A stretch of DNA of 64,000 nucleotides from a virus (taxonomy: Duplodnaviria > Caudoviricetes): positions 1-64,000 of the IMG/VR virus record IMGVR_UViG_3300031996_000001; one strand, given 5' to 3'. The notes beneath the pieces were generated by a model, which was not told where the DNA came from, ran no database searches, and saw only the letters and a list, made by a program, of their open reading frames with translations. Made by a program: the position numbers and the translations under genes. Below are positions 1,034-57,814 of the stretch, piece by piece (the stretch's first letter is position 1; every line of letters begins with the position of its first letter).

Positions 1034-1820
1034 CCAAGAGTGGTCCCACGGCCCCGGCGTGTCCCTTGACGAAGGTCAGGTAGCAGCGGCAGTTCATCCA
1101 GGTGTGCGGCGGCGCCTCGGTGTCGCCGGGGAACCACAGCTTGTGGTCCTCGATGTCCACGAACGGCTCGGCGATCGGCACCCGGTGGAACTCGTACTTG
1201 GGCGCTCCCAGGAAGGCGTGCGCCGGGCGGACCCGGTTGTCGTGCACGTCGTTCCAGACCTTGTAGCGCCAGCCAGCGGCCTCAGCAGCGGCGATCTGCG
1301 CGGTGTGTCGGGTGGCCTGCACGAACGGCAGCGCGATCCGCTCGGGGTCGCTGTAGGTCTTCGCGTGCTCGTGGGCGTGCGGGTCGTAGGGCTCACCGGG
1401 CAGCGAGACACCTGGAGATCCGCCGGTGGCCTCGTCCACCCGGGCCGCGCGGGCGATGTGCTGCGCGGCCGACTTCAGCACCGCCAGCCCGCCGTTGACC
1501 CCGGCCTGCGCGGCCTCGTCGGCGTGCTCCCACAGCCCCTCGGACTGGCGCCTGCCGACCATGTCGCGCTGCTCGCCCAGCGCGCCGTGCGCGAGCTTGA
1601 CCAGCAGCGCGATGATCGCGGCGTCGTAGCCGATCTTGGTGGCCACGGTCAGCGGACTCCCGGCCACCCGTCCACCGGCGCGAGCGAAGGACATCACGCC
1701 CTGGGTGAAGGCGCTCAGCGCGGGCAGTGCGGCGGAGATCGCGGCGTCCTGCGCGGCCCGCACGGCGTCGTCGGTCGCGCTCGGCTTGCGCGGCGGCGGT
1801 GGCTGCTGCGGGGTGGTCAC
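1020..1820 (-). CDS. MuF-like (SPP1 gp7-type) minor head protein
   Basis: C-terminal KVW..VHDNRVRPAH...EPF...FPGD..AP...NCRC; GTG at 1820 overlaps terminase stop. Confidence 0.8.
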   Translation of the reverse strand: MTTPQQPPPPRKPSATDDAVRAAQDAAISAALPALSAFTQGVMSFARAGGRVAGSPLTVATKIGYDAAIIALLVKLAHGALGEQRDMVGRRQSEGLWEHADEAAQAGVNGGLAVLKSAAQHIARAARVDEATGGSPGVSLPGEPYDPHAHEHAKTYSDPERIALPFVQATRHTAQIAAAEAAGWRYKVWNDVHDNRVRPAHAFLGAPKYEFHRVPIAEPFVDIEDHKLWFPGDTEAPPHTWMNCRCYLTFVKGHAGAVGPLLVDNA

Positions 1821-3406
1821 CTGGTGGTCCTCCTGGGCACGGTGAGGGTGGTGCCGAAGTTGCCGAAGCCGCCGATGCCGGGGCGGCGGGCGGCGGCGGC
1901 GGCACCGAGCTGGGTGCGCGGCGCGGTGACGCCCCGGGTCAGCTGCGAGCGGGCGTCGATGCGCGTGCCGACGGGGGAGAGGTGGCTCGAAGCGCCGGGC
2001 ACCCCGCCCTTGACCAGGGCCTGCGGGAACAGCAGCGCCGACAGGCCGTGCACCACGGCGTCCAGCCGGTCGGGGGAGTAGCCGGAGTCCGTCGGGGTCC
2101 AGGTGGTGAGCTGGTCCTCCAGGTCCGGCAGCGAGTGCAGGTGGTGCACCCGGCCGCGCTCGTAGGCCGCGCCGACCGGCTCGGCGCGGATCGCCTTGGC
2201 CTTCGTGGACCAGACCTCGCGGATCTGCGGCGGGGGCACGTTGGCCGCCGCCGCGCACTCCTTCAGCACCCGGCGGACCAGCGAGCCGCCCTGGTTGTTC
2301 TCCACGATCACCGTGGCGCCGTGCTTGTGCGCGGCCTTGACCACGCGGTCTCCCCAGACGGTGGGGGAGGCCTTCAGCGACAGGTCGGAGACGACGTAGG
2401 CGTGCCGGTTGAGGATCGGCATGGTCAGCGGCGCGTAGATCACGACGATGCCGCACTCGTCGTTGGGCTTCTCCGCGACCGAGGGGTCCACCGAGATGAT
2501 CTTGACCCAGCGCTTGCCCTCCAGCTTGGGCAGCCCCGTGACGCGGTGCGCGTCGATGGTCTCCATGTCAACCGTCGCGCCCTCGACGGAGTCGAGCATC
2601 AGGCCTTCCAGCTCCTGAGCGCCCAGCGTCGTGCCGCCGTAGAGGCTGAACAGCGTGTTCAGGTAGGACTGGGACAGCTTGACGTTGTCCGTGGTCTTGC
2701 CCGTGCGCAGCAGCATCTTGCCGACGTTCTCGGCGATCTCGGCCAGCAGGGCGCGCAGGATCGGGACCCGCTTCGGGGTCGTCGTGGCGATCAGCTGGGG
2801 GAGCAGCCCGAGACGGGTGGCGATCCGGAGGTTGGTCCAGGCGTCCAGCTCGCCCTGGCCCTTGACCTGCTTGTATGCCGCGATCTCGTCGCCCCAGCCG
2901 ACGTGGAACTGGGGGCCACGCAGCTGGTCGGGCTCCTCAGCGGAGAAGCACAGCGCGAACCCGCCGCCGGGCAGGTTGACACGGCGCTGGGTGGAGATCC
3001 ACTCGATCTGGTCCTGCTCGGACGGCGGGTAGATGTTCAGCAGCCCGGACTGGCCGTTGAGGATCGTGTCGCGGACGTCGGCGGCCGTGCGGCCCAGCAG
3101 CGCCACACGCAGCTGCTGACCGGGATCGCGGCCCAGGGTGTGCCACTTCTTGTCGATCTCGCGGATGTACTGCGACCCGGCGAGGGTCTTGCCCCAACCA
3201 CGGCCCGCGTTGAGCAGGCCCAGCTCCCACTCGTACTCCGCCTCGCCCATCGGGCCGACCGGCAGGATCTGGGAGGGGCGCCCGTTCCACTTCCAGTCGT
3301 AGGGCAGGTCCTCCAGCTGCTCGTCGCTCAGCGCGTCGAGGAGGGCGTCCTGCGCGTCCTTGGGCAGCAGCGCGACCTGCTGCTCCAGCGACAGGTCGGT
3401 TGACAC
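1817..3406 (-). CDS. terL: Terminase large subunit
   Basis: Walker A GRGWGKT, DQLRGPQF, Walker B-like DE, C-terminal nuclease (DP, DECG, PDRLDA); TAGCCT -10 six nt before GTG suggests leaderless. Confidence 0.93.
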   Translation of the reverse strand: MSTDLSLEQQVALLPKDAQDALLDALSDEQLEDLPYDWKWNGRPSQILPVGPMGEAEYEWELGLLNAGRGWGKTLAGSQYIREIDKKWHTLGRDPGQQLRVALLGRTAADVRDTILNGQSGLLNIYPPSEQDQIEWISTQRRVNLPGGGFALCFSAEEPDQLRGPQFHVGWGDEIAAYKQVKGQGELDAWTNLRIATRLGLLPQLIATTTPKRVPILRALLAEIAENVGKMLLRTGKTTDNVKLSQSYLNTLFSLYGGTTLGAQELEGLMLDSVEGATVDMETIDAHRVTGLPKLEGKRWVKIISVDPSVAEKPNDECGIVVIYAPLTMPILNRHAYVVSDLSLKASPTVWGDRVVKAAHKHGATVIVENNQGGSLVRRVLKECAAAANVPPPQIREVWSTKAKAIRAEPVGAAYERGRVHHLHSLPDLEDQLTTWTPTDSGYSPDRLDAVVHGLSALLFPQALVKGGVPGASSHLSPVGTRIDARSQLTRGVTAPRTQLGAAAAARRPGIGGFGNFGTTLTVPRRTTR

Positions 3407-3468
3407 GCGGTCAGGCTATCGACACCGAGGGTGACGGCCGGTCCTTTGTAGGTCGACGGCCCAGACGA

Positions 3469-3675
3469 AAGCCCGGTCCGCATCGCAACGAGGCTGTGCG
3501 CGGACCGGGCTTCCTGATCAGTACCACCGCTGAGGCGGGTCTTCCCCACCCGTGGGTCCCCAGCTGATCGAGCCTAGAAGGGCCCGGAAACGGCTGGGGC
3601 CCACCCCCGACGCAGACAGGGGGGTGGGCCCACGCAACAGCAGCAGCCGCCGATGCGCAGTAGGAGACTACTGCG
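3469..3675. ncRNA. Candidate structured RNA / terminator cluster
   Basis: 13-bp stem 3469-3481/3500-3512; CCG-GAAA-CGG 3584-3593; 12-bp stem 3597-3631 with loop GACGCAGACAG; 8-bp stem with GAGA loop 3656-3675. Confidence 0.45.
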
Positions 3676-3687
3676 GATCGTTGGTGG

Positions 3688-4587
3688 TTACCAGCGTGCT
3701 CCTCGGGCCGCGAACGCGGCCTTGCACTTCGGGCCGATGTTGCGCCCGTCGCCGCCGTCGAACCCGCACTGCTTCGCCGCCGCGCGCACCACGGCTGCGG
3801 TCTGGTCGCCGTAGTAGCCGGTGACCGGCAGCAGCGGCAGGTTCGGGACCCAGTTGTAGGCGTTCGACCACTTCTGGAACAGCGCGACGTGCGAGCTGGT
3901 CTGCCCGTAGGCCAGTGAGGGCAGCGTGTTCGGGTCGAAGACCGGCGGCGGCGGCGGCGGGGGAGCGGCGTTGACGTAGGCCGGACGGCCCCATCCGGCG
4001 ACGCAGGCCATCGAGCGAGCGCGCCGCCAGACACCGCCGCCCATGCCCTGGTTGCCGGTGCCCGACGGCGGGGTGGTGTTGCCCTCGATGGTCTGGATGC
4101 GGCCGTCGGGGAGCTTCGCCTCCACGATGCCGACGTGGTCGATCCGCCCCTCCTGGCCGGGGTTGACGAACCCGCCGAGGCCCCAGTCGAAGAAGACGAC
4201 GTCGCCGACCTGCAGGTCATCCGGCGCCTGGTGGTGGTCCTCGAACCACTTGAAGAAGGTCGGCGTGTAGGCCGACTTCGGGATCAGGTTGCCGACCCCG
4301 GCGTGGTTGAACACCCACCAGACGAACTCGGCACACCAGGCCACCCGGTCCCAGCCGTAGTAGATGCCGTAGGGGTTGGACCCGTCGGCGGCCTCGACCG
4401 TGCCGATCTGGGAGGCGGCGACCGCCAGGACGGCGGCCTGCTGCGGACCGACCACGCGCCGGGCCAGCTCCTCGGGAGCCAGCGTCTCGCCGGTCTGCAC
4501 GGGCTGGGGGCCGTCGCCCTCGTACCAGCCGTTGTTGGTCTGGCGGACCTTGTCGTCGTCCTGGGTCAGGTCTTCTGCCTCGGTCAC
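3688..4587 (-). CDS. Endolysin, CHAP domain plus C-terminal peptidoglycan-binding-like domain
   Basis: WCAEFV, HVGIV, TIEGNT motifs; Pro linker; GGAGAG RBS before GTG 4587. Confidence 0.88.
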   Translation of the reverse strand: MTEAEDLTQDDDKVRQTNNGWYEGDGPQPVQTGETLAPEELARRVVGPQQAAVLAVAASQIGTVEAADGSNPYGIYYGWDRVAWCAEFVWWVFNHAGVGNLIPKSAYTPTFFKWFEDHHQAPDDLQVGDVVFFDWGLGGFVNPGQEGRIDHVGIVEAKLPDGRIQTIEGNTTPPSGTGNQGMGGGVWRRARSMACVAGWGRPAYVNAAPPPPPPPVFDPNTLPSLAYGQTSSHVALFQKWSNAYNWVPNLPLLPVTGYYGDQTAAVVRAAAKQCGFDGGDGRNIGPKCKAAFAARGARW

Positions 4588-4601
4588 GTTCTCTCCGTTC
4601 G

Positions 4602-5651
4602 TCAGAGCTTCCAGGCCCCGCCGACGCGCTTGTTGACGGTGGCCTGCTTCCACACGCCACCGACCCGCACGAAGGCGATGGCGTCCTTCCAGACCCCGGA
4701 CTGGCGCACCTTGGCGCCGGACAGGGTCTTGCTGCTCACCGAGGTCGACCAGGCGCCGTAGCCGTTCGGCGTGTTGGCCCGCACGCGGATGTAGTAGGTC
4801 GTCCCGGGGGTCAGCCCGGTGATGCTGCGCGAGGTCGCCCAGCTGGTCCCGGTGAGCGTCTGCACCACGTTGCTGAAGGCCGAGTCGGTGGCGACCTGCA
4901 CCTGGTAGCCGCTCGGCGTCGGCCCGACCCCGGGCGCGGCCCAGTTGGCCGTGGCGCTCGTCGCGGCCACGTTCGAGAGGGTCGGCGTGCCCGCCTTGAA
5001 CGGGTCAGCGGTGAACGACCCGGTGCCCGACCAGCCCGACCAGCCCGCGCCGTTGTGCGCGGCGGTGCGCATGTAGTACGTGACGCCCGGGGCGAAGATG
5101 TCCAGGCTGCGGCCGGTCCAGCCGGGCGTCTGGTTGTCGTAGACCAGGTTGCCGAAGTTGGTCGTGCCGATCTGCAGCCAGGTGTAGTCCGGGCTGGAAC
5201 CGCCGACGTCGGCCGGGTAGCCCCAGCCGAAGTCGGCGTGGTTGCCGGTGACGCTGCTGGCGGTGGGCGTGCCCGGGGGAGAGGTGACCCGGATCGGCTT
5301 GGCGGGCAGCGACCAGTCCCAGGCGAAGGACGGACCCGCGCCGAGGTAGACCCCGTTGAGGACGGCAGCGAAGTGGTAGGTCGGACCGCCGCCGTAGCTC
5401 TGGCCCTGGTTGTAGATCGTCCAGCCGAAGGTGGTGTCGCCGTTGGCGCCCTCGGTGTTCTGGAAGTTCCAGGTGTTGCTCTGCGGGCTGGTCATCACCA
5501 GCGACTGCGCGTCGTTGAAGTTCCACGACGAGTCGCACTGGACGTGCCACGTCATGTAGACGTTGATCGACGGGGTGTAGCTGTCGTAGCCGTCGGTCCA
5601 GACGTCCAGGCCGATGCGCAGGTGGTTGGTGAACCCACCCCAGACGGTCAC
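4602..5651 (-). CDS. Minor tail protein with two FN3-like domains
   Basis: PGTPT..WGYP / TYYIRVRA.T.NGYGAWS; C-terminal VRVGGVWK repeats. Confidence 0.75.
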   Translation of the reverse strand: MTVWGGFTNHLRIGLDVWTDGYDSYTPSINVYMTWHVQCDSSWNFNDAQSLVMTSPQSNTWNFQNTEGANGDTTFGWTIYNQGQSYGGGPTYHFAAVLNGVYLGAGPSFAWDWSLPAKPIRVTSPPGTPTASSVTGNHADFGWGYPADVGGSSPDYTWLQIGTTNFGNLVYDNQTPGWTGRSLDIFAPGVTYYMRTAAHNGAGWSGWSGTGSFTADPFKAGTPTLSNVAATSATANWAAPGVGPTPSGYQVQVATDSAFSNVVQTLTGTSWATSRSITGLTPGTTYYIRVRANTPNGYGAWSTSVSSKTLSGAKVRQSGVWKDAIAFVRVGGVWKQATVNKRVGGAWKL

Positions 5652-5661
5652 TGCTCAGCCC

Positions 5662-6006
5662 TCACGAAGCGGGCTGGAACCAGACCGTGCCGTCGGGAAC
5701 CGCGCCCGGGTCGGCCGTCTGGACGAAGGTCGCACGCATGGCCACCCAGGTGGTGCCGCCGGTGAAGCACATGAGCGAGCTGAGGTCGGTGCGGGTGAAC
5801 GTGTCCCCGGGCATCACCGAGGCGCCGGTCGGATAGGCGGTGCCCGAGCCCCAGTAGTAGTTGGGCATCCGGGTCACGCCGGTCGGCAGCGAGCGGCTGT
5901 AGAAGTAGTCCTCGACGGCCTGCGCGAGCGAGGAGAGCGCGGCCGGTCCGTCGGCGCCGTCCCCCGCCTCGGGGTAGGGCAGCTTCAGGTTCGCAGTGGT
6001 CCCCAT
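5662..6006 (-). CDS. Minor tail protein (paralogue of 6008-6700)
   Basis: N-terminus MGTTANLKLPYPE typical of actinophage minor tails. Confidence 0.7.
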   Translation of the reverse strand: MGTTANLKLPYPEAGDGADGPAALSSLAQAVEDYFYSRSLPTGVTRMPNYYWGSGTAYPTGASVMPGDTFTRTDLSSLMCFTGGTTWVAMRATFVQTADPGAVPDGTVWFQPAS

Positions 6007-6007
6007 G

Positions 6008-6700
6008 TCAGCCCGCCGTCCCGATCGCTACCCAGTTGAAGGTCAGGGTTCCGGCCACCGGGGCGCCGCCGGTCTGCGACGTCCAGCGGGCGAACACCTC
6101 CGCCACGGTCGTCGTGGTGGTGTCGCAGAACAGCTGCCAGCTGTAGGCCACGCCGGTGGTGGAGATGAGCGTGAGCTGCACGTTCGGCGGCTGCGCGAAG
6201 GTGGCCCCGAAGGCGATCTCGACCGAGCCGAAGGTGCCCGCCGCGCCGATGGTGATCGTGCCGGTGCCGCTGCGGATCAGCGAGCGGTTGCGGACGTTCC
6301 AGGTGCCGGTGCCGTCCCACTCGTAGGTCACGTTCGTGTCGACCTGGCGGACCGTGAAGCCGGAGTGGAGCAGCGAGGCGTTGGCGCCGGTGGACAGCGC
6401 CAGCCGCGCCGTCTGGCTGGCCACGTCGGTGGTCTCGGCCTGCCGCCAGGCGCTGCCGTTCCAGCGCATCAGCGCGGGGCCCAGGCCCTGGTGGGTGAAG
6501 GTGTCCCCGGTGGCCACGCCGGTCGGGAACGACGACCCGGCGCCCCAGTTGTAGACCGGCATCCGGGTGATCCCGGCGGGGAGGATGCGCCGGTAGAAGA
6601 AGTCCTCGACCCCCTGCGCGAGCGCATCGAAGGACGACGGCCCGTCCACGGCGTCCGTCAGCTCCGGGTACGGGAGCTTCAGGTTCGTGGTGACGCCCAA
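6008..6700 (-). CDS. Minor tail protein, possible C-terminal H-lectin-like domain
   Basis: MGVTTNLKLPYPE; C-terminal F..TFAQPPNV....FNWVAIG. Confidence 0.7.
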   Translation of the reverse strand: MGVTTNLKLPYPELTDAVDGPSSFDALAQGVEDFFYRRILPAGITRMPVYNWGAGSSFPTGVATGDTFTHQGLGPALMRWNGSAWRQAETTDVASQTARLALSTGANASLLHSGFTVRQVDTNVTYEWDGTGTWNVRNRSLIRSGTGTITIGAAGTFGSVEIAFGATFAQPPNVQLTLISTTGVAYSWQLFCDTTTTTVAEVFARWTSQTGGAPVAGTLTFNWVAIGTAG

Positions 6701-6864
6701 GGCGGTCCCTCCCGATAGCAGGCAGTGACCTCGCGGTCACGTAGAAGCTACCGGTGCCGATCACGTCCAGTGTCCCGGCCGGGACGGAGCGCTATGCCAC
6801 TCTGGCGACTGGCGCACCCCGGCGGTGTGGGCTCAGGTCCCGCCGGGGTGCGCAAGCCATCGTG

Positions 6865-7050
6865 TCAACCGCCGTCGGAGCCGTGCCCCTGGACTCCGGA
6901 GACCATCGCCGCCAGCGCCCGCCCCACCATCTCCAGGGCCTGGATCTCGGTGAACCCCTCCTGGACCAGGGCGATGTGCATCTGGCGGAGCATCCGAGCC
7001 AGCTGGCGGTAGTCGGCACCGGGTTCCTTGTCCTGGAAGGGGCGGCTCAC
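6865..7050 (-). CDS. Hypothetical protein
   Basis: GTGA coupling; ALVQEGFTEIQAL motif; stop codon lies within a box. Confidence 0.65.
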   Translation of the reverse strand: MSRPFQDKEPGADYRQLARMLRQMHIALVQEGFTEIQALEMVGRALAAMVSGVQGHGSDGG

Positions 7051-7364
7051 GCCTCGACCGTCGATCCGTCGATCTCCGAACCGACTCGCTCCAGCTCGGC
7101 GGCCATCTGCAGCAGCGTGTCGTGGCGCAGGAACAGCATGGTGCGCTCGGTCTGGCCCAGGCCCTCGGCCCGGCTGCCCGCGTCGTACATCTTCGACCAC
7201 TCGCGCAGGTAGGTCTTCAGGACGTCGGCGATCGTCGTGTCAACCGTCGCCGGGTCGGCCAGCCGGTTCTTCAGCAGCGCCCTGGCCCGGCGCATCCCGT
7301 CGTCGTGCGCCCGCGCCATCGGCGACCGGCCGCCGAGGATGACAGCGCCCTGGAGGTCACTCAT
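7047..7364 (-). CDS. Hypothetical protein
   Basis: Coupled ORF, coding-like codons. Confidence 0.65.
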   Translation of the reverse strand: MSDLQGAVILGGRSPMARAHDDGMRRARALLKNRLADPATVDTTIADVLKTYLREWSKMYDAGSRAEGLGQTERTMLFLRHDTLLQMAAELERVGSEIDGSTVEA

Positions 7365-7773
7365 CGCGGATCGTCACCGTCGGCACGCACGCCTGACCGG
7401 GCCAGTGCCAGGTCAGCTCGTCCCCGGGGTCACCGGGGTTGAACGGGGCGTAGGGGATCTCGTTGGCCCAGCGGACGGTGCCGGGGACCGAGGTGTCCTT
7501 GACGAAGCGGTCGTTGATCCGGCCCCGGGGCTGGAAGACGACCAGGTCGAGCTTGAAGTCGGGGTCCAGCGGGTTGTCCGCGAGGATGTCCACCACGGTG
7601 GCGGCCATGCAGCGGCCCTTGCCACGGAAGTGCACGACCGCACCCTCGATCGGGTGCGCCACGAACTCCTGGGGAGCCTCGCCTTCCGGGACGTCTGCGT
7701 CGGGCCCGAGAGTCAGGCCGGGTTCTGAGGTCATGGCCCGAGTCTGGCACGTCGCTGTCAACCAATCGGGCAC
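7357..7773 (-). CDS. Hypothetical phage protein (start 7773 or 7734)
   Basis: GAVVHF..C.AA.V..LDLVVF.P.G...WHWP pattern. Confidence 0.65.
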   Translation of the reverse strand: MPDWLTATCQTRAMTSEPGLTLGPDADVPEGEAPQEFVAHPIEGAVVHFRGKGRCMAATVVDILADNPLDPDFKLDLVVFQPRGRINDRFVKDTSVPGTVRWANEIPYAPFNPGDPGDELTWHWPGQACVPTVTIRDE

Positions 7774-7780
7774 ACCGGGT

Positions 7781-7817
7781 GGTATGGCTTGACGTGTCAA
7801 CAATGTCAACGTATGGT
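7781..7817. promoter_or_regulatory. Overlapping divergent promoters with tandem boxes
   Basis: +: TTGACG-17-TATGGT, then 6 nt to ATG 7824; -: TTGACA-17-CATACC; boxes at 7795 and 7804. Confidence 0.75.
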
Positions 7818-7823
7818 GAGTGC

Positions 7824-8096
7824 ATGACGCAGACAGGACAGCTCGTGGAGCTGAAGTGGGGCACGTTCATCGCCGACCTCGGGGACACGCCCCGGGCAGG
7901 CATCGAGCACTGGGTGGACAGCTGGAAGCTGCTGTTCCGCCAGACCGAGCCGGAGGGCATGGCCATCGTCAACCGGGTCTTCATCGGCCGCACCGGCCGG
8001 GTGGTCCTGGAGGTCCTGGCGATCGACCCCGACGCGGCCGTGGCCAAGGCCTACGAGATGTGCGACAACGAGGGACCGGAGGTGCAGCCGCTGTGA
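7824..8096 (+). CDS. Hypothetical protein, leaderless (MTQT start)
   Basis: ATG 6 nt after -10. Confidence 0.7.
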   Translation: MTQTGQLVELKWGTFIADLGDTPRAGIEHWVDSWKLLFRQTEPEGMAIVNRVFIGRTGRVVLEVLAIDPDAAVAKAYEMCDNEGPEVQPL

Positions 8097-8740
8097 CCAG
8101 GGGACTTCTGATCGTGGACGTGCAGACCGACTTCTGCGAGGGCGGTCGGCTCGGGGTCGAAGGCGGCAACGCCGTCGCGGCCGACGTGGGCAAGGTGCTG
8201 ATGGACCGCCCCGGGCTCTACACCCACATCTTCGTCAGCCAGGACTGGCACAACCCGCCGCCGGACGACAACGGCGGGCACTTCGCGCTCGACGGTCACC
8301 CGGACTTCATCAAGTCCTGGCCGGTCCACTGCGTGGCGAACACGCCGGGCTCGGACGTCCACCCGGTGCTGATGTCCGCGCTGGCCGGGCTCGGGTCTAC
8401 CGGGGGCGTGACCTACGTCCGCAAGGGCCAGGGTCGGCCGGACTACTCGGCCTTCCAGGGTCTGGTGACCAACGACGAGAGGCCGCTGACCTGGGGCCTG
8501 AGCACCCACGGCGTGACCAGCCTGGACATCGTCGGGATCGCCACCGACCACTGCGTGCTCGCCTCCGGCCGGGACGCCCTGACGCTGCTCCACCAGCACC
8601 AGGGGGCCAAGCCGGGCGGGCTGCGCGAGGTCCGGGTCGTCACCGACCTCTGCGCCGGTGTCAACCAGGACGCCAGCCGGGAGGCGCTGAAGGAGCTGGA
8701 GACCTTCGGGGTGGTTCTCACCAAGGCCCGCTACTTGTAG
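8093..8740 (+). CDS. pncA: Nicotinamidase/pyrazinamidase (isochorismatase fold)
   Basis: IVDVQTDF, QDWH, WPVHCV, K-G...YSAF, GIATDHCV: catalytic D/K/C and metal ligands. Confidence 0.88.
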   Translation: MTRGLLIVDVQTDFCEGGRLGVEGGNAVAADVGKVLMDRPGLYTHIFVSQDWHNPPPDDNGGHFALDGHPDFIKSWPVHCVANTPGSDVHPVLMSALAGLGSTGGVTYVRKGQGRPDYSAFQGLVTNDERPLTWGLSTHGVTSLDIVGIATDHCVLASGRDALTLLHQHQGAKPGGLREVRVVTDLCAGVNQDASREALKELETFGVVLTKARYL

Positions 8741-8788
8741 TCTCGGGCCGCGCGGTATCCGTGACCCCGGTACCGCGCCCACTTCATC

Positions 8789-8829
8789 GAGGGCCCGTTC
8801 TCCCAGCACACGCGGGAGGGCGGGCCCTC
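8789..8829 (+). terminator. Hairpin terminator after pncA
   Basis: GAGGGCCCG...CGGGCCCTC followed by AGTCTTT. Confidence 0.55.
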
Positions 8830-8835
8830 AGTCTT

Positions 8836-8876
8836 TGTTGACACCTGTTGACACTGTTGATAGCACATGCCATACT
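8836..8876 (+). promoter_or_regulatory. Promoter with three tandem boxes
   Basis: TGTTGACAC-C-TGTTGACAC-TGTTGATA; TTGACA-17-CATACT, then 6 nt to GTG. Confidence 0.75.
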
Positions 8877-8882
8877 CACTAC

Positions 8883-9116
8883 GTGATGACGACGCAGAGC
8901 AGTGAGGTCCTGATGATCACTTCGGTGGACGAGGTCCGGCAGCGGTTGAACTACCTCCGCTCGATCGCCGCCCAGGGCGCCTTCGAGCAGGCCCGGGTCC
9001 TGGAGCGCACGCTGTGGGACGGGGTCCTGGAGGCCATCGCCAGCTGCAACGCCCAGGCCGGATGGATCGCGGCCGAGGCGCTGAAGTCGAAGGAGATCGA
9101 CTTCCCGCGCGGCTGA
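8883..9116 (+). CDS. Hypothetical protein, leaderless
   Basis: Follows promoter; coding-like codons. Confidence 0.7.
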   Translation: MMTTQSSEVLMITSVDEVRQRLNYLRSIAAQGAFEQARVLERTLWDGVLEAIASCNAQAGWIAAEALKSKEIDFPRG

Positions 9117-13086: not shown

Positions 13087-13112
13087 GGCTTCGGCCGGTG
13101 GCGCTGCGTCAT
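13083..13112 (-). CDS. Leaderless 9-aa minigene MTQRHRPKP
   Basis: ATG 7 nt after TATTGT -10; stop overlaps next ATG (ATGA). Confidence 0.45.
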   Translation of the reverse strand: MTQRHRPKP

Positions 13113-13119
13113 GTCGGCG

Positions 13120-13141
13120 ACAATAGAACGCTATGTCAACA
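13120..13141 (-). promoter_or_regulatory. Promoter with single spacer box
   Basis: GTTGACA-8-TATTGT. Confidence 0.6.
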
Positions 13142-13169
13142 AGTCCAAGCGGGGGGTCACCCCGGCGTG

Positions 13170-13415
13170 TCAGGCGCGGACGTCCATGACCTTGTCGACG
13201 TAGCCCGCCAGCCAGGCGTTGGTCTCGCAGAGCGAGTGCGACAGGTGCAGGACCCGGAGCAGATCGCCGGACGCGGCGGCCTCGGTCATCTGCTCGGTCC
13301 AGTGCGACATCGTCCGGACGATCCCGGTGATCGTGGCGTGCTCGTCGGCGGTCGGGAGCGTGACTTGGAGACGTTCGGTATCCGTATCTGGGAGGTCCGT
13401 AGCCATGCTCATCAC
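13170..13415 (-). CDS. Hypothetical protein, probably leaderless
   Basis: GTTGACA-7-CATAGT-7-GTG. Confidence 0.55.
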   Translation of the reverse strand: MMSMATDLPDTDTERLQVTLPTADEHATITGIVRTMSHWTEQMTEAAASGDLLRVLHLSHSLCETNAWLAGYVDKVMDVRA

Positions 13416-16955: not shown

Positions 16956-19900
16956 TCAGCCGACGATCACGTAGAGCGTGTTCGCGTCCTTGGTCCCCAG
17001 CGCGGTGTAGGCGGCCTGGGTGACGACCGCGATGGTCGTCATCCCGGTGCCGGTGACGTTGCCGTTGCCGGTGCCCGCCCCGATCGCCGTGCGCGCGGCG
17101 GCGGCGCTCGCCGCCGTCATCACCGAGCGGCCGGTGGTCGTGGAGTCGAGGACGTCGGTGGAGGAGAGCGTGACCGCGCCCGTGCGCCCGGCCACCGAGG
17201 ACACCGGCGACGCCGGGTAGGTCATCTGCCGCCAGCTGGCCAGCAGGGTGGAGTCGTCGGCGATGAGCTGCCAGTCGGTACCGAGGTCGGTGCGGGTCGC
17301 CCAGTCGCCGCGCTGCCCGACCAGGGCCAGCATCGCCGTCTGCGAGGCCACGGCGCCCAGGTAGTCGGTGAGCGCCACGGAGGGCAGCTGGGCCTGCGGG
17401 ATCTTCCCCGTGCCGTCCAGGGTCGCCGCAGCCGCCCAGGTGTTGTCCCCGCGCAGGAACTTGGTCGAGTCCCGGGTGCCGGTGGCGGTCAGGTCGGTGA
17501 CCGAGTGGGTGTGGCTGAGGTTGGCCTTCGTCGCCAGGCCGGGCACGGTCGGGCTGCCCGGGGTGCCGCCGAGGTCACCGGCGATGGCCGCCCGGGTGGA
17601 CATCTGCTTGTCGACGTAGGCCTTGGGGGACAGCTGAGCGGCCGTCGTCGGGTCCGCGCTGCTGCCGCTGATGACCGTGCCGGTGAAGGTCGTGGTGGCG
17701 AAGTTGAAGCTCAGCGCCGTGCCCTGCGCGGCGTTCAGCCCGGAGAACGAGAGGTTGCTCTGGGTGACCTGGATGTAGGTCGTGCCGTCCCCGTAGGGCA
17801 GGAAGCGCACGTCGCCGTTCGGGTTGCCGATCCGGAACGCGGCGCCCTGGCTGGTGTCGGGGTTGTAGATCCGGGGCTCGCGGATGCCGCTGTTGTCGAC
17901 GCCGCTGAACACCATCCCGGCGGCGTCGAAGTCGCCGTTGACGTCCCGCCGGATGACCGTGTTCGGGTCGTCCAGGTTGGTCGCGTCCACGATCTGCGCC
18001 GAGGTGTGGCTGTGGTTGACACCGCTGACCACGGTGGGCTCGTCGGCCGTGCCGCCGAGGTCCCCAGCCAGCTCCAGGATGCCCTTCACCGACGTGGAGG
18101 CCGCCGGGATCCCGAGGCCGCCGGTGTTGTCCCCGCCCTGCCGACCGCGCGGGCCCTGCACCAGGACCAGGTTGGCGCTGCCCAGCTCGACCAGGGTCAG
18201 CACGCACTCGGTCATCTCGACCGCGAACTCGCTGGCCGCGACGTAGAGGAAGGTCCGGCCGCCGCCCAGGCCGTGCACCTCGTAGTAGGTGCCGGACGGG
18301 ACGATCTGGTCGTTGGGGACGAGGTTCCAGCTGAGCAGACCGTTCGCGTCGCTGACCGCGCTGACCGAGCGCGAGATCGGGGCCTGGGTGAACGGGTCCG
18401 GGGAGTTGAGGTCGTAGGAGTCCGGCGCGACGTCCAGCCGCAGCATCAGGGTGATGGTGACCGTGCGCCCGATGATCGGCAGGCCGTCGGGGCCGATCAG
18501 GTGGTGCACCACGGTGGTGAACCGGCTGCCGAAGTTGGCCACGGTCGTGGCCGGGTCCGTGGGTGCCTCGGCCGACCGGTTGCCGGACGTGTCAACCGCC
18601 GAGACGGTGTAGTTGTAGACGCCGCCGAGGGTGACCGTGGTGTCGACGAAGCTGGTGCCGACGATCGCTCCGGCGCCGGTCAGGTCCGACCCGTCGCGGC
18701 GCACCCGGTAGGACGCGACCCCGGCGTCATCGGTGCTGGGCGTCCAGCTCACCGTGATCTGGGTCGTCCCGGTCGGCGTGGCCGTGACGTTGCCGGGCTC
18801 GGTGGGCGGCGCGACGTCGAAGGTCTTGCTGAGCGTGACCCGCTCGGTGTTGGTCGTGTCCCGGCCGGAGTAGCGGATGGTGATCGCCGTGCCGGTGTCG
18901 GTGATGTCGAGCAGGCCGTGCTGCTGCTCGGTGGTGCCGACGGTGGCCTGGGTCGGCCAGGTGCCCTGCGAGTAGGGGCCGCCCTTGATCGAGGTGGAGT
19001 TGCCCAGCGGCGCGGCGCCAGCGACCGGCAGCGAGCCGGTGTTGCCGATGCTCGTGCCGTCGTCGGCCAGCAGCGCGTGCGAGTCGCCGTGGATCAGGAA
19101 GACCTTGGCGTTGGCCGTGTGGATGGCGTCGACCAGCCGCTGCGCGGCGGCCTTGTAGCCGCCCCACTTGTCCGAACCAGCGGTCGCCACCTCGACATAC
19201 GGGACGTCCAGGCAGATGACCTTGACCGGGTAGGCCGGGTCGGCCAGCTCGGCGGCGATCCAGGCCTCCTGGGCCGTGCCGAACATCGTCTTGCTGGCGT
19301 TGTCCGTCGCCGAGGACGGGCTCTTGAACGACCGGCCGTCGGTCAGGATGAACTTGACCCGGCCGCGCCCGAAGGACCGGTAGATGCCGCCGGTCGGCAG
19401 GTCGGCGTCGACCGGGATGACCTCCCGGTAGGCGGCGTTGTAGCTCGGGGTCCAGGCGGCCGGGCCGCCGGTCCAGTCGTTGTTGCCCGAGTCGTGGTCG
19501 GACCACTGGTAGGCCAGCGGCATCCGGGTCAGGACGTCGTGCAGGCCGCTGTTGACCGCGATCTGGTTCTCGATCGAGGTCTGGTGAGTGGCCTGGGTGG
19601 TCGAGGTGCTGTTGTCGTAGTGCCAGTCGCCGAGGTGCAGGAACAGGTCCGGGGCGTTGGCCAGGATGTTGTCGAAGGACGTCCGGGTGGTGTTGCCCGA
19701 GGTCAGGCAGGACGCGAAGGCGACCCGGAAGCTCTTGACCGCCCCCGGGTTGTCGGTGGTGAACCGGCCGATCGACGTGGAGAGCACGCCGTCGACCTCG
19801 ACCTGGTACCAGTACGCGGTGTCCGGCTGCAGGCCGACGATCATGTGACGGCTGTACTGGGAGACGTCCGGCACCTGCACGGGGGTGTAGCCGACGCCGG

Positions 19901-26288: not shown

Positions 26289-26588
26289 ATGACGCAGATG
26301 GATGGCCCCAGCCTCGATGACCTCCTCCCCTTCCGGCACGTCGCTCAGGAGCAGCAGGACCTGATCCTCGGCCTGGACCACCTGGACGACGGCGAGAAGG
26401 CCAGCGTGCTGAGCACCCTGGACGACATCGCCAGCGGTGACTACTTCTGGCCGCGCACCGAGGAGCAGCTGCACGACTCGATGGCCGACGTCTACGGCCT
26501 CGTGCGCGGCTCGGACGGCCTCTGGCGGGACGCGCTGGTGCCCGATGGCAAGGGCGGCTGGGTGCTCGACCCGTCGGTGGTCGCGTGA
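26289..26588 (+). CDS. Hypothetical protein, leaderless (MTQ start)
   Basis: ATG 6 nt after -10. Confidence 0.65.
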   Translation: MTQMDGPSLDDLLPFRHVAQEQQDLILGLDHLDDGEKASVLSTLDDIASGDYFWPRTEEQLHDSMADVYGLVRGSDGLWRDALVPDGKGGWVLDPSVVA

Positions 26589-32398: not shown

Positions 32399-32589
32399 CA
32401 GACGGTCCGCAGGTACTCGGCGAAGCCCTCGTGGTCGCCCTCGTAGCTGCCCAGGCCGAAGGCCAGGCTCGGCAGGTCCTCGCCGTAGACCTTGCCGTCG
32501 CGGCGGGCCACACGGACGGTGTTCAGGTCGTTCTCCCGCAGGAAGTCGGCGGTGACCTGGCTGGTGGGGATGATCCCTGTCTGCGTCAT
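32398..32589 (-). CDS. Hypothetical protein, leaderless (MTQT)
   Basis: CATACT-6-ATG. Confidence 0.7.
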   Translation of the reverse strand: MTQTGIIPTSQVTADFLRENDLNTVRVARRDGKVYGEDLPSLAFGLGSYEGDHEGFAEYLRTV

Positions 32590-34418: not shown

Positions 34419-34531
34419 CGGTGGCCCCGCAGCGTCCAGAAGACGTGCACGGCGAAGAACGGGACCGCGTGCTGGGTCCACCAGGGCTGCGCCCGGTCGG
34501 CGGCGGGGTCGGGGAACACTGTCTGCGTCAC
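34415..34531 (-). CDS. 38-aa leaderless peptide (MTQTVFPD...)
   Basis: TATAGT-6-GTG; not in ORF track. Confidence 0.55.
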   Translation of the reverse strand: MTQTVFPDPAADRAQPWWTQHAVPFFAVHVFWTLRGHR

Positions 34532-36255: not shown

Positions 36256-36570
36256 TCAGGCGTCGTCGTCCTCGTCGTCCTCGATCTGGATGCCGGGCAT
36301 CCCGGGCACGCTCACGCCCTTGCGGGCGTAGGTCTCGGCCTGGGTGGGCTTGGCGCCCTCGTGCAGGACGGTGATCTGGTCCAGCGGGATCAGGTAGTCC
36401 CGGCTGCCCTTGACCACGATCGCGGGCAGCGGGCCCTCGGGGTACACGGCCAGCAGCTCGTAGGGCCCCCAGGTGCGGCTGGACTTGGTCCGCACGGTGA
36501 CCTCGGAGCCGATCAGGCTGGCCAGGAAGGCGATGGACGTGGTGGGCGTGTCGTTGCTCGTCTGCGTCAT
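36256..36570 (-). CDS. Small beta-barrel (Sm/SH3-like?) protein, leaderless (MTQT)
   Basis: FLASLIGSEVTVRTK...LIPLDQITVL; TATAGT-7-ATG. Confidence 0.6.
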   Translation of the reverse strand: MTQTSNDTPTTSIAFLASLIGSEVTVRTKSSRTWGPYELLAVYPEGPLPAIVVKGSRDYLIPLDQITVLHEGAKPTQAETYARKGVSVPGMPGIQIEDDEDDDA

Positions 36571-56166: not shown

Positions 56167-56418
56167 ATGACGCAGACGCCCCAACACCGACTACGCCTCA
56201 ACGGATTCTCCCGCGAGAAGGCCGCGCTGATCCGGCAGATGGAGGACGACGGCTGGACCGGCCGCGTCTCCACCCGGGGCCACGCCCTCATGCGCTCGCC
56301 TGACGGCACCATGACCTGCTCCGTGGCCCCCAAGACGGGCAGCCCGACCAGGGACATGGGCAACTCCCAGATGATCTACAAGCGGTGGAAGCGCTCCATC
56401 ACCGCTCCCTCCCGCTGA
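56167..56418 (+). CDS. HicA-like toxin/mRNA interferase, leaderless (MTQT)
   Basis: GW.....RGH....PDG......P.T.S..R..GN. Confidence 0.65.
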   Translation: MTQTPQHRLRLNGFSREKAALIRQMEDDGWTGRVSTRGHALMRSPDGTMTCSVAPKTGSPTRDMGNSQMIYKRWKRSITAPSR

Positions 56419-56437
56419 CAGACAGGACGACGCAGAC

Positions 56438-57298
56438 ATGTGGATCTTCACCGAGCACGGCTTCTTCACCTTCGTGGTGGACCGCAAGGACCCCAGCTAC
56501 GTCTGGCTGCGGGCCCGGATGCGTGAGCACCTGGAGGACAACTTCCCCGGCATCGAGGTCACCGAGCACCCCGGCGCCGACTACTTCTTCCGGGCCAAGG
56601 TGACCCGCGCCTACCTCGCCGAGCAGATGTCCCGGCTGGTCATGGACGCGAACATCACCAGCCACTTCAAGGACGAGATGAACCGCCGCGCGGCCAAACC
56701 GCGCTGGGGCTCGATCTCCCAGGTGATGTACGCGGTCTGGAACGGCGCCGCGCAGTGGCAGCCCTACGCGCCGTACTCCAAGGTGCCCAGGCCCGAGCCC
56801 AAGCCGTTCGTGCCTGCCGCCAAGGGCACCCAGGGCGCGCTGTTCCCGGACTACTCCCGCTACGGCGGCAGCCGGGCCGGGGACTACGACTGGACCACCG
56901 GCACCTGGAAGGGTGGTACCAAGGTCGGGGAGAGCGCGCCGGACCCCCGTGTCAACCAGAGCACGGACATCGCCCCGGAGCGGGCCCGGCAGATCGCCGA
57001 CATGCTCGACGGTCTCACCGAGGACGACTTCGAGGAGATCTGGCCGACGCTCTCCGCCGACGAGCAGGCCGCGTACCTGGACTACCAGGAGGAGCTGGCG
57101 GACGCCTGGGATGCCGGGGATGCACCCCAGGCGTCCGTCTCCACCCCGGCAACGCCTGCCCCGGTGTTCTCCCACACCGAGGAGGACCACGGGGCCCAGG
57201 CACGGCTGGAGGAGTGGTTCACCTCCCGCAAGGAGAACGCCTACGCCGCGCCCAAGGGCGGCGGGCGGCGGCGAGGGCGGAAGCGCCGCAAGAAGTAG
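56438..57298 (+). CDS. Conserved hypothetical protein with acidic/basic tail
   Basis: MWIFT.HGFF.....LRAR...HL.....ADY.FRA....FKD. Confidence 0.75.
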   Translation: MWIFTEHGFFTFVVDRKDPSYVWLRARMREHLEDNFPGIEVTEHPGADYFFRAKVTRAYLAEQMSRLVMDANITSHFKDEMNRRAAKPRWGSISQVMYAVWNGAAQWQPYAPYSKVPRPEPKPFVPAAKGTQGALFPDYSRYGGSRAGDYDWTTGTWKGGTKVGESAPDPRVNQSTDIAPERARQIADMLDGLTEDDFEEIWPTLSADEQAAYLDYQEELADAWDAGDAPQASVSTPATPAPVFSHTEEDHGAQARLEEWFTSRKENAYAAPKGGGRRRGRKRRKK

Positions 57299-57445: not shown

Positions 57446-57814
57446 ATGACGCAGACGATCGCCAGACCCGGCACCTACATGAACACCGTCCCGGCGCGGG
57501 TCTCTGACCGCGTGCAGATGGCCCAGACCGTCGGCTACCGCGACTCCCACCTCGGCCTCCGGCTCTACCGCTACGACCTGGTCAGCGTGGCCGAGGCGCG
57601 CGAGGAGTTCGGCGCGACGCTGGAGGACGCCCGGTCCTTCGTCGGCAACTCGACCTGCCAGGAGTGCGGGCTGGCCGCCTGCGAGCTGCGCGAGTGCTTC
57701 GAGTGCGAGACCAAGGGCTGCGCCTGCCTGATCCGCGAGGGAGACCACGATGACCACTACTGGTGCGCTGACTGCACCCGCCCCTGCTACGGCCGCTGCT
57801 GCACCGACGACTGA
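57446..57814 (+). CDS. Cys-rich hypothetical protein, leaderless (MTQT)
   Basis: Several CxxC motifs. Confidence 0.65.
   Translation: MTQTIARPGTYMNTVPARVSDRVQMAQTVGYRDSHLGLRLYRYDLVSVAEAREEFGATLEDARSFVGNSTCQECGLAACELRECFECETKGCACLIREGDHDDHYWCADCTRPCYGRCCTDD

Follow-up and report, generated by a model that had tools for sequence, protein, structure and literature searches.

Why would a stem-loop that follows the lysis gene of an uncultured soil actinophage carry in its loop the same letters that begin a set of the phage's predicted leaderless messages? To address this question, we analysed a window of 64,000 nucleotides, which is the first 64 kb of an 82.7-kb IMG/VR viral record with 69.9% G+C (the genome is referred to as G000). 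A sequence-only reading of the window had described a hairpin at 3597–3631 whose loop repeats the start of leaderless genes at 7824, 32589 and 34531, and had listed a shorter form of this sequence at 26289, 36570, 56167 and 57446. We found that this observation was correct and far beyond chance. Two perfectly complementary 12-nt arms (3597–3608 and 3620–3631) flank an 11-nt loop (3609–3619), which reads GACGCAGACAG on the plus strand and its complement on the minus strand. The exact 11-mer occurs at 3609(+), 7826(+), 32587(-) and 34529(-), that is, four copies in the window compared with 0.10 expected from 100 dinucleotide shuffles, none of which reached four. The three copies outside the hairpin directly follow the first two bases of the start codons at 7824, 32589 and 34531. 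The 8-mer GACGCAGA occurs 18 times compared with 4.9 expected, and eight or nine of these copies sit directly after an ATG or GTG that lies 6–7 nt downstream of a -10 hexamer, which makes those genes predicted leaderless starts. The exact 16-mer around the loop hit 17 other viral contigs, but all of these were an unrelated conserved coding stretch without a hairpin.

We next examined the context of the hairpin. On the minus strand, a minor-tail-like FN3 protein is followed by a CHAP-domain endolysin gene (4653..3688), a 280-nt gap with several hairpins and the large terminase gene (TerL; 3406..1817, Terminase_6N/6C). The hairpin starts 57 nt after the endolysin stop codon and ends 190 nt before the terminase gene. 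A crude GC3-based gene map showed tail and lysis genes upstream on this strand, with terminase, portal and head genes continuing downstream around the contig ends, and the hairpin therefore sits at the lysis–packaging junction. The whole 291-nt intergenic stretch folds much better than shuffled sequences on both strands (z = -4.7 on the plus strand and z = -6.0 on the minus strand). The 3' untranslated stretch between the endolysin stop and the hairpin (3632..3687, minus strand) holds a small 8-bp hairpin (3656–3675) and a partial second copy of the loop core, TTGCGT, abutting the stem. A second strong hairpin with a 13-bp outer stem (3468..3512) lies between the loop-bearing hairpin and TerL and is a likely additional terminator, although neither of the neighbouring hairpins carries the motif. 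No sigma-70-like promoter and no canonical U-tract terminator was found by a consensus scan of either strand of 3000–4800, and an Rfam search of the same stretch returned only two chance-level hits (E = 0.5–0.8), neither of which lies on the hairpin. Thus, the element has the GC-rich stem and operon-end position of an intrinsic terminator, but neither the short loop of 3–8 nt nor the U-tract directly after the stem; terminators without a U-tract occur in actinobacteria, so termination is not excluded. A search for RNA sequencing runs containing window 1800–9000 returned none, and contigs from four DNA runs were fragmented and gave no starts, ends or strand. In two soil runs (X3 and X4), contigs join 3624 to 3721, skipping or replacing 96 nt between the hairpin arm and the end of the endolysin gene, which hints at a recombination boundary at the hairpin.

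To determine whether the hairpin is conserved, we looked for related phages. A DNA search of the phage collection gave no match, and the best TerL protein hit among cultured phages was 46% identical. A pattern scan for the promoter plus the shared start sequence found three near-complete relatives of 85–90 kb (G001–G003; TerL 68–72% identical), and a TerL-profile scan of metagenome contigs added four more (L083 at 88%; L085, L087 and L088 at 70–76%). Across these seven sequences TerL is 67–88% identical to that of G000. Each of the seven carries one strong GC hairpin on the TerL strand, upstream of TerL, with CTGCGTC in its loop: G001, about 65356–65390; G002, 3305–3351, which was located by synteny; G003, 18222–18256; L083, 702–737; L085, 87–130; L087, 3004–3045; and L088, 7149–7182. 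Where the upstream gene is visible, it is a cell-wall hydrolase ending 40–70 nt before the stem, but the families differ (CHAP, Amidase_2, Peptidase_M15_4 and PG_binding_1) and the G000, G001 and G003 proteins do not match each other, indicating that the hairpin is kept while its neighbour is exchanged. Two further weak hairpins with the core (G001:15029 and G003:43593) lie inside coding sequence and were discarded. More distant TerL relatives (39–57% identity; L055–L063) showed neither tagged promoters nor the hairpin in the stretches examined.

The stems differ in sequence but always pair. Stems are 11–13 bp and, counted outward from the closing pair in a hand-anchored register (a MAFFT alignment of the eight hairpins misplaced two cores), 88 of 88 cells are standard pairs, 87 Watson–Crick and one U.G, the latter on the TerL strand in G001. 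Ten of eleven stem positions show two or more pair types. Loops are 10, 11, 13, 13, 14, 18, 20 and 21 nt, their flanks are not alignable across lineages and the core sits at different offsets, yet all seven core positions are invariant and always lie in the loop. Other perfect hairpins in these genomes mostly have 4–9-nt loops. One exception is a second conserved large-loop hairpin (14–16-bp stem, 14-nt loop) at 6812–6853 in the window and at G001:62770–62815, about 3 kb upstream on the same strand; G000 and G001 share its loop core CCTGAGCC, which is not enriched at gene starts. A partial second copy of the anti-tag core, (C/T)TGCGT, lies in the single-stranded stretch 0–18 nt 5' of the stem in five of eight genomes (window 3632–3640 on the minus strand, L083, G001, G003 and L088) and is the full CTGCGTC in G001. 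The pattern of covarying stems around an invariant loop core is the signature of a folded single strand whose loop bases are read by something, and not that of a protein-bound palindrome or a fixed-length cohesive end. However, in G000 and L088 the core abuts the stem, which may limit its accessibility, and in G002 part of the core can form a weak inner helix.

The core is the complement of nt 3–9 of an invariant start. In four complete genomes (G000–G003), 7–9 genes each begin ATGACGCAGA(C), and they lie behind a nearly invariant promoter consisting of TTGACA, 3 nt, TTGACA, 8 nt, CATACT and 6 nt before the start codon. The encoded proteins are small and unrelated. A relaxed scan separated two promoter classes: double-box promoters are mostly tagged (28 of 40), whereas single-box promoters (ctggTTGACA, 8 nt, CAGACT or CATACT) have no -35 at normal spacing and are mostly untagged (4 of 29; Fisher p = 6e-6). 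Single-box promoters precede the structural operon after TerL in all four genomes and the lysin operon in G000 (start at 7734) and G001 (62021); they start with untagged GTGCC or ATGACC. The two classes were noted at window 7732–7809, 1006 and 13112–13415, all on the minus strand, and at G001:62021 and 68642, G002:6734 and G003:21606. This arrangement looks like an early versus activator-dependent late division. The operon that ends at the G000 hairpin has both types (7732..7809, minus strand), a double TTGACA box (7809–7795) with a -10 at 7786–7781 and a GTG at 7773, and a single box (7762–7757) with CAGACT (7746–7741) and an ATG at 7734. Because of the double-box promoter, late expression of this operon is not established, and timing remains an inference that the two promoter classes support only indirectly. 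Both of its starts lack the tag, so the RNA that would carry the anti-tag is itself untagged and belongs, at least partly, to the class that looks activator-dependent. TerL itself may be leaderless from an unusual promoter: its start GTGTCAACC (window 3395–3420, minus strand; around 1470–1500 in sequences L034–L036) is the reverse complement of the dispersed GGTTGACAC box and is preceded by a conserved TAGCCTG..GC in all genomes.

We then measured the complementarity between loops and leaders. On the TerL strand, the loops are complementary to tag nt 3–9 in all eight genomes and to nt 3–10 in six, and they reach nt 2 or nt 1 in G002 and L087. In G000, the full loop is complementary to nt 3–13 of three leaderless mRNAs and to nt 3–11 of three more. 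The predicted tagged starts are at 7824..7836 (plus strand; 12 nt complementary), 32577..32589 (minus; 13 nt, including closing pairs), 34519..34531 (minus; a GTG codon, 11 nt), 36560..36570 (minus; 9 nt), 26289..26299 (plus; 8 nt), 56167..56177 (plus; 9 nt) and 57446..57456 (plus; 9 nt). A further copy of the tag (GACGCAGAC; 56429–56440, plus strand) lies immediately before the ATG of a leadered gene (56438–57298), and the loop could therefore also cover that start. The G002 loop matches one leader over 14 nt and the others over 10–12 nt, and the L085 loop matches the adjacent leader over 11 nt, whereas G001 and G003 match over only 7 nt. Predicted loop:leader duplex energies were -13 to -28 kcal/mol, averaging -18.4 in G000, -22.3 in G002 and -13.3 in G001 and G003, compared with -5.6 to -8.2 for shuffled loops, and leader nt 1–13 were predicted to be on average about half unpaired. 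Among the eight genomes, which form one shallow clade, the tag never varied. Only the loop flanks did; they lean towards the commonest fourth codon of the genome's own leaders (ACA-G in G000, ACC in G002), and own-genome matches were 1–1.5 nt longer than cross-genome ones, which is suggestive but weak. The tag is conserved over 10–11 nt even in G001 and G003, more positions than their loops can pair with, so pairing cannot be the only reason for its conservation; it must have a primary role of its own, in promoter escape or leaderless initiation, which the loop would exploit.

The sequence-only reading had offered two models: a minus-strand loop antisense to the mRNA starts that could shut off early translation late in infection, and a plus-strand decoy for an RNA-binding protein. 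Its interpretation is partly supported. The antisense model fits all the sequence evidence that we could gather, and a condition set beforehand as able to refute it, that loop and leaders are not co-conserved in relatives, did not hold, as they are co-conserved. Our best reading, to which we assign a probability of about 45%, is that the hairpin is the conserved 3'-end stem-loop of the lysin operon on the minus strand, which probably also stops transcription before the terminase module, and that its unusually large loop displays an anti-tag, the complement of the invariant 5' sequence AUGACGCAGA(C) that begins the leaderless mRNAs made from the double-TTGACA promoters. In this view, the loop, as the tail of the lysin transcript or as a stable processed fragment, would pair with nt 3–9 (up to nt 1–14) of those mRNAs. 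A leaderless mRNA needs a free 5' AUG to load a ribosome, and start-codon accessibility governs leaderless initiation (PMC8459731); the duplex would therefore block initiation and/or create a double-strand target for RNases, and the tagged, presumably early, regulon would be turned down as lysin and structural operons are expressed. The structure, its position, its conservation, the complementarity and the promoter classes are established by our analysis, whereas transcription on this strand, pairing in trans and repression as the outcome are inferred from sequence logic alone.

DNA sequence cannot by itself distinguish an antisense loop on the lysin strand from a mimic on the other strand, on which the hairpin would display the tag itself (GACGCAG) and titrate a protein or ribosomal component that recognizes it. 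The same conservation data fit such a decoy. In G001–G003, L087 and L088, a small convergent gene ends 11–25 nt (220 nt in L088) from the hairpin, so that strand is probably transcribed through it there, and the loops of L087 and G002 hold ATGACGCAGA and GTGACGCAGACC, respectively, which look like complete starts. However, in six of eight loops the bases before GACGCAG are not UG, so the start codon is not mimicked, and G000 and L083 have no gene or promoter-like site that would transcribe this strand through the hairpin. G000 lacks three genes that G001–G003 have between the hairpin and TerL, a small convergent gene (of zinc-ribbon type, or an unrelated 53–57-aa protein) followed by a divergent promoter with two small conserved ORFs (window 3407–3596 compared with G001:65399–66203, G002:3365–4281 and G003:18275–19093), and tblastn found no copy elsewhere in G000. 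Furthermore, wherever the upstream gene is visible the hairpin lies at the 3' end of a lysin gene on the TerL strand; wobble pairs favour this strand 3 to 1, and the U.G pair enclosed in the G001 stem becomes a C.A mismatch on the other strand; no candidate tag-binding protein was identified; and there is one motif in one hairpin per genome, lacking the many repeated motif-bearing loops that define CsrB/RsmZ-type sponges. We therefore consider a decoy unlikely, although it cannot be excluded. A fixed position relative to the promoter and transcription start, conservation beyond the paired bases in G001 and G003, and about nine 8-mer copies outside leaders compared with about five expected would also suit a duplex DNA site, in which a phage or host regulator binds GACGCAG at +3 to +9 of the tagged promoters, resembling the asymmetric stoperator sites of Cluster A mycobacteriophages, and a further copy happens to lie between the arms of an ordinary bidirectional terminator. 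This too is unlikely, because a duplex site has no reason to sit precisely in the unpaired loop of a covarying hairpin in eight of eight genomes while the arms change sequence and spacing around it, and there is only one such extra site per genome, always at this junction.

The remaining readings (ALTERNATIVES) fare no better. The junction between the lysis cassette and the terminase gene is where genome ends usually lie, and twofold symmetry around a short spacer resembles some cos nicking sites, but a packaging signal is very unlikely: a spacer of 10 to 21 nt among close relatives is incompatible with a fixed cohesive end, the arms covary instead of being conserved, the hairpin is 2.8 kb from TerL in L088 and about 0.9 kb away in G001–G003 with other genes and a promoter in between, TerL is of the T4-like Terminase_6 type whose nearest cultured relatives are large Gordonia and Microbacterium phages, and the identity with the leader tag is left unexplained. 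A plain terminator whose loop match reflects chance or common descent would fit a GC-rich hairpin at the end of an operon in a single clade, but this is improbable given that seven loop positions stay invariant while flanks and stems have diverged freely, that the chance of the exact 11-mer is about 0.1 per window and that the core equals the only other strongly conserved short RNA-level motif in these genomes. Pairing in cis with the tagged first gene of the terminase operon just downstream fits L085 (11 nt) and partly G002, but was rejected because G000 has no such gene. Mimicry of a 16S rRNA segment that pairs with the tag was also dropped, as the partial 16S of a Modestobacter MAG contains no CTGCGTC and its longest complement to the tag is 6 nt, although this test is weak because the true host is unknown. 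A scan of genome contigs for the promoter-plus-tag pattern gave only single, mostly chance hits and no prophage relative. In a 4.7-Mb Modestobacter sp. MAG (contig 9, about 188–191 kb), a 3-kb island holds the only three doubled GTTGACA boxes of that genome plus nine single GTTGACA copies, and one box is followed by ATGACGCAGA, but the genome contains no TerL relative, so this is a possible host or mobile-element hint only.

None of the closest known systems is a family to which the element belongs by homology. Phage antisense RNAs such as P1/P7 c4 RNA, P4 CI RNA, P22 sar and lambda OOP use exposed loop or single-stranded bases to pair with phage mRNAs near their translation starts and so set the timing or immunity of gene expression, and c4 and CI recognize more than one complementary site; however, they have their own promoters or are processed from leader regions and target one operon, whereas the candidate here is the terminal hairpin of a lysin operon and its target would be a shared 5' tag on about ten separate leaderless mRNAs. 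In Staphylococcus aureus RNAIII, the C-rich loops of hairpins H7, H13 and H14, including that of the terminator hairpin, pair with ribosome-binding sites of several mRNAs, so that one loop motif serves many targets, but through loop–loop contacts with Shine–Dalgarno regions and not with the extreme 5' end of leaderless mRNAs. Terminator loops of the E. coli sRNAs SdsR, RseX and ArrS are likewise regulatory determinants in fepA control, although the authors conclude that these likely act without base-pairing (PMC11979758). The T4 endoribonuclease RegB (PMC3014915) works alike at the level of logic, inactivating many early mRNAs together after the early phase through GGAG, a short motif shared by their initiation regions, but it is a protein nuclease acting on Shine–Dalgarno sequences, whereas here the proposed effector is an RNA loop and the mRNAs have no leader. 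The tag itself recalls the start-associated sequences of Cluster K mycobacteriophages (PMC3203893), which are also tied to the translation starts of a subset of otherwise unrelated genes, are conserved across related genomes and have an unknown function. Those 13-bp motifs lie just upstream of the start codon of leadered genes, and the extended form (ESAS) adds adjacent 17-bp inverted repeats, whereas the tag here begins at the start codon of leaderless genes and the inverted repeat is a single remote hairpin that carries the complement of the tag. CsrB and RsmZ also display in their loops the motif of the mRNA sites bound by a regulator, but no CsrA-like partner is known here.

It is possible, although tentative, that this group of soil actinophages marks its early, leaderless mRNAs with a fixed 5' tag and also encodes, as the terminal hairpin of the lysin operon, a single antisense loop that recognizes it. 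One small RNA element would then switch off a whole regulon of leaderless messages by occluding their 5' AUG, a post-transcriptional early-to-late switch of a kind that has not been described for leaderless mRNAs or for actinophages. If the RNA model fails, the element still marks a conserved and unexplained signal at the lysis–packaging junction of a phage group with no cultured member. A portable 11-nt tag plus a 35-nt hairpin could serve as an orthogonal switch for leaderless expression in high-GC hosts. Leaderless mRNAs are common in actinobacteria, but almost nothing is known about how they are regulated after transcription; a natural system with a shared 5' tag and a conserved complementary loop would provide a directly testable case of RNA-based control of leaderless initiation, and would be the first candidate regulatory RNA of this type in actinophages.
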